From: Naegleria gruberi
Taxonomy: Eukaryota
DNA: 8,734 nt
Direction: 5' to 3' (one strand)
Assembly (NCBI GenBank): GCA_000004985.1
Contig: GG739056.1
This document shows, one piece after another, positions 1 to 8,734 of the stretch. The position numbers and the translations under genes were made by a program. Numbering within the stretch: position 1 is the stretch's first letter; each line of letters starts with the position of its first letter. Under the pieces are notes generated by a model, which saw only the letters and a list, made by a program, of their open reading frames with translations, ran no database searches and had not been told where the DNA came from.

Positions 1-1068
1 AATCGATCACTCGTCCCTTAATTGACGATCCGGCATACAACCACTGAACCAACAGTGTTATAGCTGTAATTTCTAGAAATGCTTCATATGAAGAACCAAG
101 TGGTTGTATGACCTGGAATTGTCGGCTTCTATTAAGAACAACAATTAACAAAATAACAACAAGAATTGTATCATTATATGATAATAACAATAATTTATTA
201 AACAATATGGAAGGGAGAAGTTGCTCCCTCACCAAATGATGGAGGGAAGATTCAACTTGATGAACAAGAGATGGTACCTCCACCATCTACTTAAATTCAG
301 TATCATTGAAGATTATCCTGATGATCTTGATAAATAGATTCATACATCGGAAAAGTGTTGGAAGCAGAGTAATTTGGCGTTGTATTTTGATAATCGTAAT
401 ATTTTAAAGGGTTAAAAATGGAGTTAATTAATGCGATTATCAAAATAATGGCTTTAAATCCATGGCTATTAGCACTGCCAACAAGCAAATTGTGGAGTGA
501 GAAACATTACCACTTCCACCTAATATTAATAAATATTATTTACTTGTTCCTTAATGATCTTAATGATATCGGAATAAGTGCGCACCGCAATTAAAGATAG
601 TTTCACACTTGTTCAACACAGCTATTAAGCAATAGAAAATTAACAAGTTTAACACCAATTCAAATACAAAATACTCAACAATTACTGAATTAAATGCAAA
701 TATCCCAACGTCATTTTGTAGAGAATTAAGTTGAACCTATGCGATTTTTCACCTTTTGCCAAATGGTTGCGTATCTAGCAAGCCCCCCCAAGAGAACAAA
801 AAACACAGAAATATTGAGGTAAAACGAGTTGATTATCTACATTATTTGATAGCAACCAATATTAAAATTATATATCAGCATGTAGCCGTGAACATTTCCT
901 ATCTAATGATATATATCGATGTATATGAAGTCTTATAAATAATGATGTTTTAAGAGCGCAGATTAATATCCAAACCCTAGTAAAATGTTGAGTTTCACCA
1001 AAATAAAGATATTTCCAAGACATAGAAATCACCCATACTATTCTACTATATTAAATATATCTATGATG

Positions 1069-1316
1069 ACGGTTGGTGAGTGTTCCGAGGATGGTTTACC
1101 AACTTGAAAAATTATAATCCAAAAATTGATTTACTATTTTATGATGAAAGTCCAATAATAAAAATTACTACTATTACTACTATTTAGATGATGTTGAGAT
1201 GATGATGTGAAAGTTTGGCAGCTTACGGATGTGAAACCACTCGAAGAATCATCAAAGTACATCACGTACTAGATGTTGAAATATTTTTTCACATATTCGC
1301 AACTGAACAAACAAAC
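1069..1316 (+). repeat. Copy A of a non-coding AT-rich interspersed repeat family. Core motif: attactactattactactatttagatgatgttgagatgatgatgtgaaagtt ... aaaccactcgaagaatcatc. It contains a short internal inverted pair (1074-1104 vs 1230-1255).
   Basis: Seen in sequence: 1096-1150 aligns with 8089-8144 (ggttt.c.a..gaaa...caaaa.tt..atgatgaaag). 1151-1253 aligns with 8196-8264. 1166-1215 is near-identical to the reverse complement of 8351-8400 (tactactatttagatgatgNtgagatgatgNtgtgaaa). The downstream segment 1257-1316 (gtacatcacg...atattcgcaactgaacaaacaaacc) resembles 8427-8460 (gttacatcacggtaatttcgcgccaaccaaaaacc). I aligned these by eye, so the boundaries are approximate. Confidence 0.5.
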
Positions 1317-1427
1317 CTTGCTTCAAAAAATCAACCAAACTCTAGTAATACCTTGCTTGGTTTTCGTTCCAACAATTCAAGCCAAACAACACAAGAGAAT
1401 CTATTTAATATAATTGGAAAATTCAAT

Positions 1428-1433
1428 TTTATT
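1428..1433 (-). promoter_or_regulatory. Candidate poly(A) signal (AATAAA on the minus strand) ~275 nt downstream of the DUF4116 gene's stop codon. An ATTAAA variant also sits at 1404-1409 (minus).
   Basis: Seen in sequence: plus-strand tttatt at 1428-1433 is the first minus-strand AATAAA 3' of the TAA at 1707. In DNA of this AT content a hexamer like this is expected by chance, so support is weak. Confidence 0.18.
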
Positions 1434-1706
1434 AAATGTATCATTCAATTTATCGGTGTTACTAAGGTTGTGCATTTTCCATTTTGGTTTACCGTCATCA
1501 GTATTAAGCGGATGCTCTTTTCCCGTCTGTAGTAAGAAACTGAGTGTTCTCCGTCTCATCCGTCCCCCGTTTCACCGTCACTTAGTACCATCTCTCTGGA
1601 GATCTCCAATTTCATTAAGCGAATGAAACTATTCGTAAAATTCAAGTGGCAATTTTCGCCAATAGTCGATCGCCAAAATGTGTATACTCATTGTAGACCA
1701 GAGACG

Positions 1707-2354
1707 TTAATAAATATTACAATTTAGAGTTTTCTGATTCGATAATCTCTTTGAAGCAAATCGAATTGCTTTTCCATCATTCGTTACAGCTGCCAAGACA
1801 ATCTCTTCACAATCTTTGAGTTTTGGAGAGGCATACATAAGGGCAGATCCATTTTTTGTTACGGCTGTCAAAACAAGTTCCTTATCTGCCTTGAATTCTT
1901 CACTTGCAAATCTGAGACAAAATCCACAGTGTGAAAGAGCCTCTTTAAGAAGCTCTCTGTCGTCTTTGAAAATGGTCTTCTCCAAAAGGTCCGGATTAAA
2001 TTGCAGAATTGATTTGAAATCCTCTCTGTCACTCTCTATTATTTTGTAAATAGATTGAACTTTGGATGTAAAATAAGGCGTTCTTGCAGCTAGGAAAAAG
2101 CATTCTCTATCCTTTTGGATTGCCTCTGGCATTTCGTTAATACACTTTCCGTTACTTTTCAATATTGTGAGAACTAGTTCTCTATTATTAAGCAGAAAAT
2201 CACTATTGATATAATGTAGAATCGTGAAGTTTGATTTAAATAGTGCCTTTTTCACAATATCTTCATCTTCCTTGAATTTTCCAATATATTGAAAAGAACT
2301 TGCTGCATCTATGTCAATAATCATGTCAATAATTTCTCTATCAGTCCGTATTTC
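1707..2354 (-). CDS. 3'-terminal coding exon (partial; 5' end lost in assembly gap) of a DUF4116-type tandem-repeat protein. About 8 consecutive ~25-aa repeats, e.g. DKELVLTAVTKNGSALMYASPKLK / DCEEIVLAAVTNDGKAIRFASKRL; stop codon TAA at 1707-1709.
   Basis: Seen in sequence: the minus-strand frame is open from the gap edge (2354) to TAA at 1707-1709 (215 codons). I checked the last codons by hand: ...K-T-L-N-C-N-I-Y-stop. The translation shows a periodic ~24-26 aa motif D/N-x-E-x-V/I-L/F-x-A/I-V/L-x-x-N/D-G-x-A/C-L/I-x-Y/F-A-S-x-x-L/F-K, which from memory matches the PF13475 DUF4116 repeat. No other frame or strand here is open for more than about 77 codons. Third-codon positions are mixed, not AT-saturated, which argues for real coding against a chance AT-rich ORF. 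Confidence 0.62.
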   Translation of the reverse strand, partial: EIRTDREIIDMIIDIDAASSFQYIGKFKEDEDIVKKALFKSNFTILHYINSDFLLNNRELVLTILKSNGKCINEMPEAIQKDRECFFLAARTPYFTSKVQSIYKIIESDREDFKSILQFNPDLLEKTIFKDDRELLKEALSHCGFCLRFASEEFKADKELVLTAVTKNGSALMYASPKLKDCEEIVLAAVTNDGKAIRFASKRLSNQKTLNCNIY

Positions 2355-5300
2355 NNNNNNNNNNNNNNNNNNNNNNNNNNNNNNNNNNNNNNNNNNNNNN
2401 NNNNNNNNNNNNNNNNNNNNNNNNNNNNNNNNNNNNNNNNNNNNNNNNNNNNNNNNNNNNNNNNNNNNNNNNNNNNNNNNNNNNNNNNNNNNNNNNNNNN
2501 NNNNNNNNNNNNNNNNNNNNNNNNNNNNNNNNNNNNNNNNNNNNNNNNNNNNNNNNNNNNNNNNNNNNNNNNNNNNNNNNNNNNNNNNNNNNNNNNNNNN
2601 NNNNNNNNNNNNNNNNNNNNNNNNNNNNNNNNNNNNNNNNNNNNNNNNNNNNNNNNNNNNNNNNNNNNNNNNNNNNNNNNNNNNNNNNNNNNNNNNNNNN
2701 NNNNNNNNNNNNNNNNNNNNNNNNNNNNNNNNNNNNNNNNNNNNNNNNNNNNNNNNNNNNNNNNNNNNNNNNNNNNNNNNNNNNNNNNNNNNNNNNNNNN
2801 NNNNNNNNNNNNNNNNNNNNNNNNNNNNNNNNNNNNNNNNNNNNNNNNNNNNNNNNNNNNNNNNNNNNNNNNNNNNNNNNNNNNNNNNNNNNNNNNNNNN
2901 NNNNNNNNNNNNNNNNNNNNNNNNNNNNNNNNNNNNNNNNNNNNNNNNNNNNNNNNNNNNNNNNNNNNNNNNNNNNNNNNNNNNNNNNNNNNNNNNNNNN
3001 NNNNNNNNNNNNNNNNNNNNNNNNNNNNNNNNNNNNNNNNNNNNNNNNNNNNNNNNNNNNNNNNNNNNNNNNNNNNNNNNNNNNNNNNNNNNNNNNNNNN
3101 NNNNNNNNNNNNNNNNNNNNNNNNNNNNNNNNNNNNNNNNNNNNNNNNNNNNNNNNNNNNNNNNNNNNNNNNNNNNNNNNNNNNNNNNNNNNNNNNNNNN
3201 NNNNNNNNNNNNNNNNNNNNNNNNNNNNNNNNNNNNNNNNNNNNNNNNNNNNNNNNNNNNNNNNNNNNNNNNNNNNNNNNNNNNNNNNNNNNNNNNNNNN
3301 NNNNNNNNNNNNNNNNNNNNNNNNNNNNNNNNNNNNNNNNNNNNNNNNNNNNNNNNNNNNNNNNNNNNNNNNNNNNNNNNNNNNNNNNNNNNNNNNNNNN
3401 NNNNNNNNNNNNNNNNNNNNNNNNNNNNNNNNNNNNNNNNNNNNNNNNNNNNNNNNNNNNNNNNNNNNNNNNNNNNNNNNNNNNNNNNNNNNNNNNNNNN
3501 NNNNNNNNNNNNNNNNNNNNNNNNNNNNNNNNNNNNNNNNNNNNNNNNNNNNNNNNNNNNNNNNNNNNNNNNNNNNNNNNNNNNNNNNNNNNNNNNNNNN
3601 NNNNNNNNNNNNNNNNNNNNNNNNNNNNNNNNNNNNNNNNNNNNNNNNNNNNNNNNNNNNNNNNNNNNNNNNNNNNNNNNNNNNNNNNNNNNNNNNNNNN
3701 NNNNNNNNNNNNNNNNNNNNNNNNNNNNNNNNNNNNNNNNNNNNNNNNNNNNNNNNNNNNNNNNNNNNNNNNNNNNNNNNNNNNNNNNNNNNNNNNNNNN
3801 NNNNNNNNNNNNNNNNNNNNNNNNNNNNNNNNNNNNNNNNNNNNNNNNNNNNNNNNNNNNNNNNNNNNNNNNNNNNNNNNNNNNNNNNNNNNNNNNNNNN
3901 NNNNNNNNNNNNNNNNNNNNNNNNNNNNNNNNNNNNNNNNNNNNNNNNNNNNNNNNNNNNNNNNNNNNNNNNNNNNNNNNNNNNNNNNNNNNNNNNNNNN
4001 NNNNNNNNNNNNNNNNNNNNNNNNNNNNNNNNNNNNNNNNNNNNNNNNNNNNNNNNNNNNNNNNNNNNNNNNNNNNNNNNNNNNNNNNNNNNNNNNNNNN
4101 NNNNNNNNNNNNNNNNNNNNNNNNNNNNNNNNNNNNNNNNNNNNNNNNNNNNNNNNNNNNNNNNNNNNNNNNNNNNNNNNNNNNNNNNNNNNNNNNNNNN
4201 NNNNNNNNNNNNNNNNNNNNNNNNNNNNNNNNNNNNNNNNNNNNNNNNNNNNNNNNNNNNNNNNNNNNNNNNNNNNNNNNNNNNNNNNNNNNNNNNNNNN
4301 NNNNNNNNNNNNNNNNNNNNNNNNNNNNNNNNNNNNNNNNNNNNNNNNNNNNNNNNNNNNNNNNNNNNNNNNNNNNNNNNNNNNNNNNNNNNNNNNNNNN
4401 NNNNNNNNNNNNNNNNNNNNNNNNNNNNNNNNNNNNNNNNNNNNNNNNNNNNNNNNNNNNNNNNNNNNNNNNNNNNNNNNNNNNNNNNNNNNNNNNNNNN
4501 NNNNNNNNNNNNNNNNNNNNNNNNNNNNNNNNNNNNNNNNNNNNNNNNNNNNNNNNNNNNNNNNNNNNNNNNNNNNNNNNNNNNNNNNNNNNNNNNNNNN
4601 NNNNNNNNNNNNNNNNNNNNNNNNNNNNNNNNNNNNNNNNNNNNNNNNNNNNNNNNNNNNNNNNNNNNNNNNNNNNNNNNNNNNNNNNNNNNNNNNNNNN
4701 NNNNNNNNNNNNNNNNNNNNNNNNNNNNNNNNNNNNNNNNNNNNNNNNNNNNNNNNNNNNNNNNNNNNNNNNNNNNNNNNNNNNNNNNNNNNNNNNNNNN
4801 NNNNNNNNNNNNNNNNNNNNNNNNNNNNNNNNNNNNNNNNNNNNNNNNNNNNNNNNNNNNNNNNNNNNNNNNNNNNNNNNNNNNNNNNNNNNNNNNNNNN
4901 NNNNNNNNNNNNNNNNNNNNNNNNNNNNNNNNNNNNNNNNNNNNNNNNNNNNNNNNNNNNNNNNNNNNNNNNNNNNNNNNNNNNNNNNNNNNNNNNNNNN
5001 NNNNNNNNNNNNNNNNNNNNNNNNNNNNNNNNNNNNNNNNNNNNNNNNNNNNNNNNNNNNNNNNNNNNNNNNNNNNNNNNNNNNNNNNNNNNNNNNNNNN
5101 NNNNNNNNNNNNNNNNNNNNNNNNNNNNNNNNNNNNNNNNNNNNNNNNNNNNNNNNNNNNNNNNNNNNNNNNNNNNNNNNNNNNNNNNNNNNNNNNNNNN
5201 NNNNNNNNNNNNNNNNNNNNNNNNNNNNNNNNNNNNNNNNNNNNNNNNNNNNNNNNNNNNNNNNNNNNNNNNNNNNNNNNNNNNNNNNNNNNNNNNNNNN

Positions 5301-7731
5301 NNNNNNNNNNNNNNNNNNNNNNNNNNNNNNNNNNNNNNNNNNNNNNNNNNNNNNNNNNNNNNNNNNNNNNNNNNNNNNNNNNNNNNNNNNNNNNNNNNNN
5401 NNNNNNNNNNNNNNNNNNNNNNNNNNNNNNNNNNNNNNNNNNNNNNNNNNNNNNNNNNNNNNNNNNNNNNNNNNNNNNNNNNNNNNNNNNNNNNNNNNNN
5501 NNNNNNNNNNNNNNNNNNNNNNNNNNNNNNNNNNNNNNNNNNNNNNNNNNNNNNNNNNNNNNNNNNNNNNNNNNNNNNNNNNNNNNNNNNNNNNNNNNNN
5601 NNNNNNNNNNNNNNNNNNNNNNNNNNNNNNNNNNNNNNNNNNNNNNNNNNNNNNNNNNNNNNNNNNNNNNNNNNNNNNNNNNNNNNNNNNNNNNNNNNNN
5701 NNNNNNNNNNNNNNNNNNNNNNNNNNNNNNNNNNNNNNNNNNNNNNNNNNNNNNNNNNNNNNNNNNNNNNNNNNNNNNNNNNNNNNNNNNNNNNNNNNNN
5801 NNNNNNNNNNNNNNNNNNNNNNNNNNNNNNNNNNNNNNNNNNNNNNNNNNNNNNNNNNNNNNNNNNNNNNNNNNNNNNNNNNNNNNNNNNNNNNNNNNNN
5901 NNNNNNNNNNNNNNNNNNNNNNNNNNNNNNNNNNNNNNNNNNNNNNNNNNNNNNNNNNNNNNNNNNNNNNNNNNNNNNNNNNNNNNNNNNNNNNNNNNNN
6001 NNNNNNNNNNNNNNNNNNNNNNNNNNNNNNNNNNNNNNNNNNNNNNNNNNNNNNNNNNNNNNNNNNNNNNNNNNNNNNNNNNNNNNNNNNNNNNNNNNNN
6101 NNNNNNNNNNNNNNNNNNNNNNNNNNNNNNNNNNNNNNNNNNNNNNNNNNNNNNNNNNNNNNNNNNNNNNNNNNNNNNNNNNNNNNNNNNNNNNNNNNNN
6201 NNNNNNNNNNNNNNNNNNNNNNNNNNNNNNNNNNNNNNNNNNNNNNNNNNNNNNNNNNNNNNNNNNNNNNNNNNNNNNNNNNNNNNNNNNNNNNNNNNNN
6301 NNNNNNNNNNNNNNNNNNNNNNNNNNNNNNNNNNNNNNNNNNNNNNNNNNNNNNNNNNNNNNNNNNNNNNNNNNNNNNNNNNNNNNNNNNNNNNNNNNNN
6401 NNNNNNNNNNNNNNNNNNNNNNNNNNNNNNNNNNNNNNNNNNNNNNNNNNNNNNNNNNNNNNNNNNNNNNNNNNNNNNNNNNNNNNNNNNNNNNNNNNNN
6501 NNNNNNNNNNNNNNNNNNNNNNNNNNNNNNNNNNNNNNNNNNNNNNNNNNNNNNNNNNNNNNNNNNNNNNNNNNNNNNNNNNNNNNNNNNNNNNNNNNNN
6601 NNNNNNNNNNNNNNNNNNNNNNNNNNNNNNNNNNNNNNNNNNNNNNNNNNNNNNNNNNNNNNNNNNNNNNNNNNNNNNNNNNNNNNNNNNNNNNNNNNNN
6701 NNNNNNNNNNNNNNNNNNNNNNNNNNNNNNNNNNNNNNNNNNNNNNNNNNNNNNNNNNNNNNNNNNNNNNNNNNNNNNNNNNNNNNNNNNNNNNNNNNNN
6801 NNNNNNNNNNNNNNNNNNNNNNNNNNNNNNNNNNNNNNNNNNNNNNNNNNNNNNNNNNNNNNNNNNNNNNNNNNNNNNNNNNNNNNNNNNNNNNNNNNNN
6901 NNNNNNNNNNNNNNNNNNNNNNNNNNNNNNNNNNNNNNNNNNNNNNNNNNNNNNNNNNNNNNNNNNNNNNNNNNNNNNNNNNNNNNNNNNNNNNNNNNNN
7001 NNNNNNNNNNNNNNNNNNNNNNNNNNNNNNNNNNNNNNNNNNNNNNNNNNNNNNNNNNNNNNNNNNNNNNNNNNNNNNNNNNNNNNNNNNNNNNNNNNNN
7101 NNNNNNNNNNNNNNNNNNNNNNNNNNNNNNNNNNNNNNNNNNNNNNNNNNNNNNNNNNNNNNNNNNNNNNNNNNNNNNNNNNNNNNNNNNNNNNNNNNNN
7201 NNNNNNNNNNNNNNNNNNNNNNNNNNNNNNNNNNNNNNNNNNNNNNNNNNNNNNNNNNNNNNNNNNNNNNNNNNNNNNNNNNNNNNNNNNNNNNNNNNNN
7301 NNNNNNNNNNNNNNNNNNNNNNNNNNNNNNNNNNNNNNNNNNNNNNNNNNNNNNNNNNNNNNNNNNNNNNNNNNNNNNNNNNNNNNNNNNNNNNNNNNNN
7401 NNNNNNNNNNNNNNNNNNNNNNNNNNNNNNNNNNNNNNNNNNNNNNNNNNNNNNNNNNNNNNNNNNNNNNNNNNNNNNNNNNNNNNNNNNNNNNNNNNNN
7501 NNNNNNNNNNNNNNNNNNNNNNNNNNNNNNNNNNNNNNNNNNNNNNNNNNNNNNNNNNNNNNNNNNNNNNNNNNNNNNNNNNNNNNNNNNNNNNNNNNNN
7601 NNNNNNNNNNNNNNNNNNNNNNNNNNNNNNNNNNNNNNNNNNNNNNNNNNNNNNNNNNNNNNNNNNNNNNNNNNNNNNNNNNNNNNNNNNNNNNNNNNNN
7701 NNNNNNNNNNNNNNNNNNNNNNNNNNNNNNN
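2355..7731. other. Assembly/scaffold gap: an uninterrupted run of 5,377 N. No sequence information.
   Basis: Seen in sequence: every base from 2355 to 7731 is 'n'. Real sequence resumes at 7732 (gaagaatattgcag...). Confidence 0.99.
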
Positions 7732-8195
7732 GAAGAATATTGCAGACGAGTTCCATACAAGGTAATTCCTTATGTATTTTAGTTTTTGGATTAAAATACA
7801 TATTCTATTTAATGTAAACTGACAGTAACAGTTCCATCAAGTAAAATTCCATTAAATACTACTCAAAACATCACAACTAAAATGAATCTTTCCTAATTAT
7901 TATCATCAAATGGATCTTTTATCATTTATTCTTCCTCCATGTGAAAATTTTCAGTTCTACCCCTATCAGCAGTGATGATGAATTAACTTTTCAAAATTAA
8001 AGTACTAAAATTAAATTAATTAATTTCCACGCAAATAGTATCACTGCAACTTTGTTGATTACTGGTAGAGGCCTAGTTTTGCTTCAGGTTTTCAATCCGA
8101 AATTTCTGACAAAATTAGTGTATTATGGTCATAATGATGAAAAGATGGTAAGTGCTCAGATGATTCATGTCCTTGAAAAATAAATTCTATTTGAT

Positions 8196-8264
8196 GATAA
8201 TAAAAATTACTATTTAGAAGATGATGTGCTTTCATGAGGTAAAACCACTCCGAGAATCATGGCC
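8196..8264 (+). repeat. Left arm of a long imperfect inverted repeat (foldback stem). It pairs with 8306-8400.
   Basis: Seen in sequence. Left arm: gataataaaaattactatttagaagatgatgtgctttcatgaggtaaaaccactccgagaatcatggcc. The reverse complement of 8306-8400 reads aactattattactactatttagatgatgatgagatgatgctgtgaaattcttggggtttaatcatggaaaaccactccgaaaatcagcatggcaac. The shared blocks are attac(tac)tatttagaWgatgatg (~25 bp) and aaaaccactccgaRaatca..tggc (~22 bp). The loop (~8265-8305) is itself bounded by catggcc...ggttgccatg. Confidence 0.6.
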
Positions 8265-8305
8265 AAATTAGAGAAACCAGTTGTTGAATATTTTTTACTA
8301 CTCGG

Positions 8306-8400
8306 TTGCCATGCTGATTTTCGGAGTGGTTTTCCATGATTAAACCCCAAGAATTTCACAGCATCATCTCATCATCATCTAAATAGTAGTAATAATAGTT
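8306..8400 (-). repeat. Right arm of the same inverted repeat. This inverted core copy is more similar to copy A (1166-1215) than to B's own left arm.
   Basis: Seen in sequence: the reverse complement of 8351-8400 is aactattattactactatttagatgatgatgagatgatgctgtgaaattc. Copy A 1163-1215 reads aattactactattactactatttagatgatgttgagatgatgatgtgaaagtt. I estimate roughly 90% identity over ~50 bp. Confidence 0.6.
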
Positions 8401-8493
8401 AGACCGAGGGAGGTGAGCTAAAAAATGTTACATCACGGTAATTTCGCGCCAACCAAAAACCGCTGAAAGTTGTCTGTTCTGACCGTTAAATAT

Positions 8494-8520
8494 TCAACAA
8501 AAAAAAACAACAAACAACAA
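8494..8520. repeat. Short low-complexity A/AAC-rich tract (caacaaaaaaaaacaacaaacaacaa), microsatellite-like.
   Basis: Seen in sequence: an A9 run followed by (aac/aaac) units. A similar tract (aacaacaattaacaaaataacaacaag) is at 129-156. Confidence 0.4.
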
Positions 8521-8734
8521 TTACTCATCATGATTTCATCATCACCCTGCTAAATAGTTGGTATTCCCACCTTCAGCATGCTACCTTGAGAAGCCACCAT
8601 GAGGAGAGTTCTCCCTTTGCTTCCTTCCTCACCAGCCATTACTACACCAAAACATCATCTAGATAAGTGCCTGCCCATTTACTTGAAATTGTTGGTACAT
8701 TAAAGCGAAGGTTCATGACAAGAACCCAGAAGTA

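Follow-up and report, generated by a model that had tools for sequence, protein, structure and literature searches.

The window, by which we mean the whole 8,734-base stretch of Naegleria gruberi DNA that was analyzed, contains a run of 5,377 N (2355–7731; 62% of its length) and 3,357 readable bases with ∼31% GC and a low ORF density. The N run covers whatever separates the repeat copy on its left from those on its right, and its odd length suggests a scaffold gap of estimated size. One convincing coding segment was found, a minus-strand ORF at 1707–2354 that runs into the gap. It provides the C-terminal 215 aa of a protein and carries four DUF4116 repeats (Pfam E = 2.3e-41); its best relatives, ∼33% identical over most of the length, come from metagenome contigs and from dinoflagellates and other protists, and no record matches the protein exactly. 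To the right of the gap, at 7733–7975 on the plus strand, we noted by eye what may be the end of a gene: an exon end (…EEYCRRVPYK), a GT..AG intron at 7763–7953 with a TTTTCAG acceptor, and a putative last exon, FYPYQQ*, closing with TGA at 7973–7975. Taken with the DUF4116 ORF, the putative intron points to a draft scaffold from an AT-rich eukaryote. If this gene is real, the hairpin described below lies ∼160–400 bp downstream of it. At the right edge, where the GC content of the window is highest (41%), an open frame on the minus strand at 8645–8734 (YFWVLVMNLRFNVPTISSKWAGTYLDDVLV*) resembles, by eye, the YxDD region of a reverse transcriptase; a Pfam scan found nothing there, and a reverse-transcriptase relic (YLDDVLV) beside the hairpin was rejected. 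The noncoding sequence on the left holds small palindromes or inverted repeats at 383–447, 891–934, and 1403–1437 (22-nt arms at 86%, a 26-nt overlapping palindrome, and 35 nt at 80%), none of them related to the repeat family that concerns us here. The features of that family, and of the hairpin that it forms, are as follows.

1063–1299, plus strand: repeat unit A, the longest copy, solo, ∼7 kb from units B and C and beyond the N gap
8134–8304, plus strand: repeat unit B, 171 bp, full length save for internal deletions (∼22 nt plus smaller ones)
8287–8399, minus strand: repeat unit C, in the opposite orientation, without the first ∼100 nt of the unit; it provides the right arm of the hairpin
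8515–8558, minus strand: fragment D, a marginal copy of ∼45 nt that holds the first conserved block (ACTATTTAG..GATGATGA..ATGATG)
8206–8390, no strand: hairpin formed by units B and C, 67 predicted base pairs in 12 helices, centered at ∼8290 (z = −7.2, −7.1, and −6.3)
8241–8259 paired with 8315–8333: inner core helix, AAAACCACUCCGAGAAUCA with UGAUUUUCGGAGUGGUUUU, 19 bp with one G-U, the longest uninterrupted duplex

The inverted repeat at 8206–8390 is far above chance. When positions 8190–8405 were folded, as the initial annotation had proposed, both the RNA and the DNA predictions gave a single long bulged hairpin, in keeping with the stable stem that it had expected. The RNA fold had an MFE of −67.4 kcal/mol compared with −37.5 ± 4.2 for 200 dinucleotide shuffles, none of which did as well (0/200; z = −7.2). 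As DNA, the same stretch gave −38.4 (z = −7.1), and the minus strand gave −64.2 (z = −6.3). Such near-equal stability on the two strands is expected of inverted repetition at the DNA level rather than of a selected RNA.

The geometry of the stem agrees with the initial annotation in its main lines and departs from it in detail. The two core blocks do face each other in inverted orientation: TACTATTTAGAAGATGATG (8208–8226) is complementary to CATCATCATCTAAATAGTA (8370–8388) over 19 nt at 95%, and a 35-nt block at 8225–8259, which includes the pair AAACCACTCCGAGAATCA/TGATTTTCGGAGTGGTTT, is complementary to 8315–8349 at 80%. After the inner core helix, the second longest is a 13-bp helix of 8206–8218 with 8378–8390. 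The catggc/gccatg symmetry described beside the loop is present as a helix of 8260–8263 with 8308–8311. The arms are bulged and imperfect as claimed, but they measure 58 nt on the left (8206–8263) and 83 nt on the right (8308–8390), not ∼70–95 bp; they are unequal because the right arm has ∼22–25 extra nucleotides. Where one 9-bp and one ∼12-bp mismatch block had been described, the fold shows right-arm bulges of 10, 6, and 6 nt (8334–8343, 8354–8359, and 8364–8369). Weak symmetry runs on through the nominal loop (8264–8304), and its center, at 8290.5, falls on an AATATT palindrome.

Sequence related to the arms recurs elsewhere in the window. A core 18-mer occurs three times with at most three mismatches, against 0.01 occurrences expected, and the two-block pattern TACTATTTAGANGATG-N(15–45)-AAACCACTC has three exact matches in the readable window, against 0.00 expected. 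The initial annotation was therefore right to take the arms for members of a repeat family rather than sequence unique to this locus, since a third copy, absent from that annotation, lies 7 kb away at 1063–1299. In gapped local alignment, A (1063–1299) and B (8134–8304) match at 140 of 167 non-gap columns (84%), with 74 gap columns, and their score of 92 compares with 28.8 ± 5.4 for shuffles (maximum, 50). A (1167–1285) and C (8399–8287) match at 87 of 113 non-gap columns, scoring 108 against 26.8 ± 4.3 (maximum, 46). The B–C alignment scored 55, where the best shuffle reached 44. In nhmmer, unit B was recovered with E = 5.7e-39, by a profile that includes unit B itself, and fragment D with E = 0.004. 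D is 75% identical over 44 nt in blastn, lies ∼120 bp from C in the same orientation, and scored 45.5 against it, compared with 22.8 ± 4.2 for shuffles (maximum, 37.5). Thus, at least three copies and a fragment lie within 3.36 kb of readable sequence. The copies seen in the window, three plus the fragment, have different extents, and what we would call a dispersed family rests here on one distant copy, A, and the local cluster of B, C, and D.

The homology of A with the right-hand cluster does not stop where the hairpin stops. Unit B comprises the left arm (8206–8263), the nominal loop (8264–8304), and ∼70 bp to the left of the palindrome, and A is homologous to all three, including 8134–8205 outside the palindrome. 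For this reason, we regard the repeating unit, as judged from these alignments, as a nonpalindromic, noncoding sequence of ∼170–240 bp. Its conserved blocks have 11 and 9 invariant nucleotides, and the spacing between them varies from 18 to 40 nt among copies. The 5′ part of the unit (8128–8203 and 1063–1120, both on the plus strand) starts with ATGATGA, in a block common to A and B, and at the 3′ ends of the same two copies a T6 run is conserved after GTTGAA(A)TA (1281–1286 in A and 8291–8296 in B). TRF detected a 9-nt tandem, ATTACTACT, repeated 2.3 times in copy A at 1164–1184, which explains a length difference between copies. Two smaller features were seen in and around unit B. The 13-mer TTGTTGAATATTT (8281–8293) recurs perfectly inverted at 8488–8500, and ATTCTATTTGA (8183–8193, plus strand) matches the start of the Ciona spliced leader over 11 nt, probably by chance in AT-rich DNA.

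We compared the three copies with one another over the 101 columns that they share. A and B are identical at 59, A and C at 66, and B and C at 69. By this measure, the two arms resemble each other essentially no more closely than they resemble copy A, and all three copies are old and diverged. Site patterns gave 18 positions grouping B with C against A, 15 grouping A with C against B, and 8 grouping A with B against C. States common to B and C and absent from A include CCGA and CATGGC beside the core, whereas C keeps the ∼22–25 nt, and also the ATTACTAC duplication common to A, both of which B is missing.

These counts bear on the possibility that the hairpin arose by a local inverted duplication, in which fold-back priming or template switching at the AATATT near 8290 would have placed a copy of B on the other strand, after which the arms would have decayed and B would have suffered deletions. 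The position of the symmetry center on that palindrome, the weak symmetry that continues through the nominal loop, and the states shared by B and C alone are all compatible with such an origin, and the shared states are a point against two independent copies. However, an excess of 18 sites over 15 is trivial, and several later deletions in B would be needed, of the ∼22–25 nt and of the ATTACTAC duplication kept in C. Fragment D, 120 bp away and oriented like C, would be explained no less well by clustered insertions or rearrangements. We consider this origin unlikely.

The initial annotation had interpreted the ∼200-bp palindrome as a foldback or MITE element. Put in terms of the copies, the whole palindrome (∼8197–8399) would be one such element, its arms would be the terminal inverted repeats, and A would be a half-element or a solo arm. 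The sequence is small, AT-rich, and noncoding with long inverted arms; the arm sequence recurs elsewhere in the window, and a TAATAA 6-mer flanks 8204–8389. The units themselves are MITE-like in size and composition (171–237 bp, ∼30% GC, and noncoding). Nevertheless, the homology between A and B carries on for ∼70 bp to the left of the palindrome and also spans the loop; therefore, the palindrome does not end where the repeated unit ends. Copy A contains no inverted repeat and has none nearby, and the readable sequence around it holds no inverted partner. The arms differ by indels of ∼25 nt and are as diverged from A as from each other.

The boundaries told the same way. We found no clean terminal inverted repeats bounding the repeated unit and no target-site duplication at the boundaries of the palindrome, of A, of B plus C, or of the A-to-C interval; for the last three, the only direct repeat of at least 4 nt was AATA. 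The only 6-mer repeat flanking the palindrome is TAATAA (8198–8203 and 8390–8395). It lies within sequence homologous to A and so is part of the unit rather than a duplicated target, and a 6-mer found within ±6 nt of slack in 31% GC DNA is not significant. TRF found no tandem subrepeat arrays in 8134–8400. A Stowaway-like terminus, CTCCCTC at 8405–8415, was considered and rejected, for by inspection the left side has no inverted counterpart. The locus thus resembles MITE and foldback elements in size, composition, and multiplicity, but the features that define membership in either class were not found. That the palindrome is itself such an element is a reading to which we give little credence.

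Among all inverted matches in the window, the strongest does not join the two arms of the hairpin; it pairs A (1167–1254) with the right arm (8312–8399) over 88 nt at 80% complementarity, 7,057 nt apart. It could be asked, then, whether A on the plus strand and C on the minus strand are the terminal inverted repeats of one ∼7.3-kb DNA transposon (1167–8399), with B and D as subterminal repeats; the clustering of the repeated motifs near the right end would suit this arrangement. Against it, the homology between A and B runs on for ∼100 bp beyond 1167, where the terminus would be, no target-site duplication is present at 1167/8399 or at 1063/8399, and an identity of 77–80% is low for the terminal repeats of a single element. 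The only readable gene inside is that of the DUF4116-repeat protein, which is not a transposase, and 5,377 of the internal bases are N. Of all the explanations considered, a single large transposon seems to us the least likely.

We also examined the units as possible genes. No conserved ORF runs through the copies, and the ORFs that overlap them have no Pfam matches. Unit A alone folds no better than its shuffles (z = +0.89), nor does unit B (z = +1.99). The three units together yielded no consensus structure (−1.07 kcal/mol and 0 compensatory pairs). A structured-RNA gene family was therefore rejected, as units that fold worse than shuffles and show no covariation do not behave like one. Searches of Rfam, with the whole window and with each repeat region under laxer filters, gave only matches far below the gathering scores. 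Most of these were to C/D-box snoRNA models and were drawn by the recurring UGAUGA motif. The best was plasmodium_snoR28 at 8128–8203, whose 24.1 bits compare with a gathering score of 63; further pairs were 22 against 51 and 21 against 211, and the miRNA models reached 10–21 bits against 46–211.

A small-RNA locus would take one of two forms here: units transcribed as C/D-box snoRNA-like or pol III-type RNAs that stop at the T6 run, or a stem that serves as a hairpin-RNA or miRNA-like precursor. The many weak snoRNA matches on the sense strand of the unit, the recurrence of UGAUGA motifs, and the T6 run conserved at the ends of A and B would fit the former, and the predicted 19-bp duplex would be long enough for Dicer-type processing. 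However, every Rfam match is far below its gathering score, inspection of the copies found no CUGA D box conserved in position with a terminal stem, single units fold worse than shuffles without shared structure or covariation, and the spacing of the conserved blocks varies between 18 and 40 nt. We judge a gene of either form to be highly improbable.

Relatives outside the window were sought with patterns built on the conserved blocks and in the literature. The first pattern gave no matches in a metagenome collection, and the second (core plus tail) gave eight, none of them similar beyond the pattern itself. A viral collection returned no DNA matches and no relative of the DUF4116 protein, and a viral or giant-virus origin was rejected on these two results. 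A prokaryotic source with a masked stretch and a bacterial palindromic repeat (RPE-like) were likewise rejected: in a prokaryote genome collection of 185,579 species, the two-block pattern had a single match, a chance one in a coding region of a MAG with 47% GC, and the window itself did not turn up. A literature search with the core sequences as strings found no papers.

Several known systems offer points of comparison. One is offered by inverted pairs of short interspersed repeats, such as the Alu pairs of primates, in which two independent, diverged short repeats in opposite orientation form a long imperfect hairpin by their arrangement only, and solo copies occur elsewhere; this likeness is a matter of general architecture and not of sequence match. 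Unlike SINEs such as Alu, the unit has no tRNA-, 7SL-, or 5S-like head and no A-rich tail: neither a poly-A tail nor pol III A and B boxes were found in it, Rfam gave no tRNA, 7SL, or 5S matches, and ARAGORN found no tRNA-like genes, although these searches have little power to detect degenerate SINE heads. Stowaway and Tourist MITEs are likewise <500 bp, AT-rich, noncoding, multicopy, and capable of forming hairpins, but they are bounded by terminal inverted repeats whose ends are defined and by a TA or TAA target-site duplication, neither of which was found here, and here the repeated unit is not the palindrome. FB-type foldback elements share the long imperfect inverted arms, the short spacer, and the reiterated short motifs (GATGATG and ATTACTACT here). 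In FB elements, however, tandem subrepeats in arrays make up the arms and it is the entire palindrome that moves, whereas we found one 9-mer in 2.3 copies, in A, and a solo copy that is not palindromic. Finally, hpRNA or endo-siRNA loci and TE-derived miRNA loci also consist of a repeat duplicated in inverted orientation, with a stem of tens of base pairs, and the predicted 19-bp uninterrupted duplex would be consistent with them; hpRNA loci are, however, defined by small-RNA production and typically have arms of several hundred base pairs, whereas the stem predicted here is short and heavily bulged.

We conclude, with a probability of about 0.6, that the hairpin consists of neighboring copies, in inverted orientation, of a dispersed repeat that is unclassified and likely a relic of a nonautonomous transposable element, and is a by-product of their arrangement. 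The units are not themselves palindromic, structured, or coding, and only their inverted juxtaposition gives rise to the stem. Two old, diverged copies of one short noncoding repeat would sit tail to tail in a noncoding, AT-rich stretch, and the complementarity of B, near full length, with the truncated C would produce the ∼67-bp bulged stem. The copies presumably came from transposition or local rearrangement of mobile or repeat sequence. That the unit is most likely a nonautonomous element relic is suggested by the pattern of the copies and is not a classification, and the hairpin itself probably has no selected function of its own. On the other side, the invariant blocks separated by variable spacers could reflect constraint, for example protein-binding sites, which would speak against a relic.

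If the region were transcribed, for instance by read-through, the RNA could fold as an imperfect dsRNA hairpin and be diced or edited as a side effect. A stronger version, in which the inverted pair would be transcribed and processed and its 19-bp core duplex would be the source of endo-siRNAs or of a young miRNA-like RNA derived from a TE, strikes us as improbable. Were it true, such RNAs could target other copies of the family or genes that carry the repeat.

The repeat is unclassified, and the hairpin is most likely an inverted repeat pair of an ordinary sort rather than a discrete foldback or MITE element. It should accordingly be masked or annotated as repeat-derived and should not be listed among active MITEs or candidate structured RNAs. 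Should the genome turn out to hold many copies of the family, a ∼240-bp consensus based on copy A would serve well in repeat masking. Pairs in inverted orientation, such as B and C, are candidate sources of dsRNA and candidate sites of replication or recombination instability, a role that would not surprise specialists.
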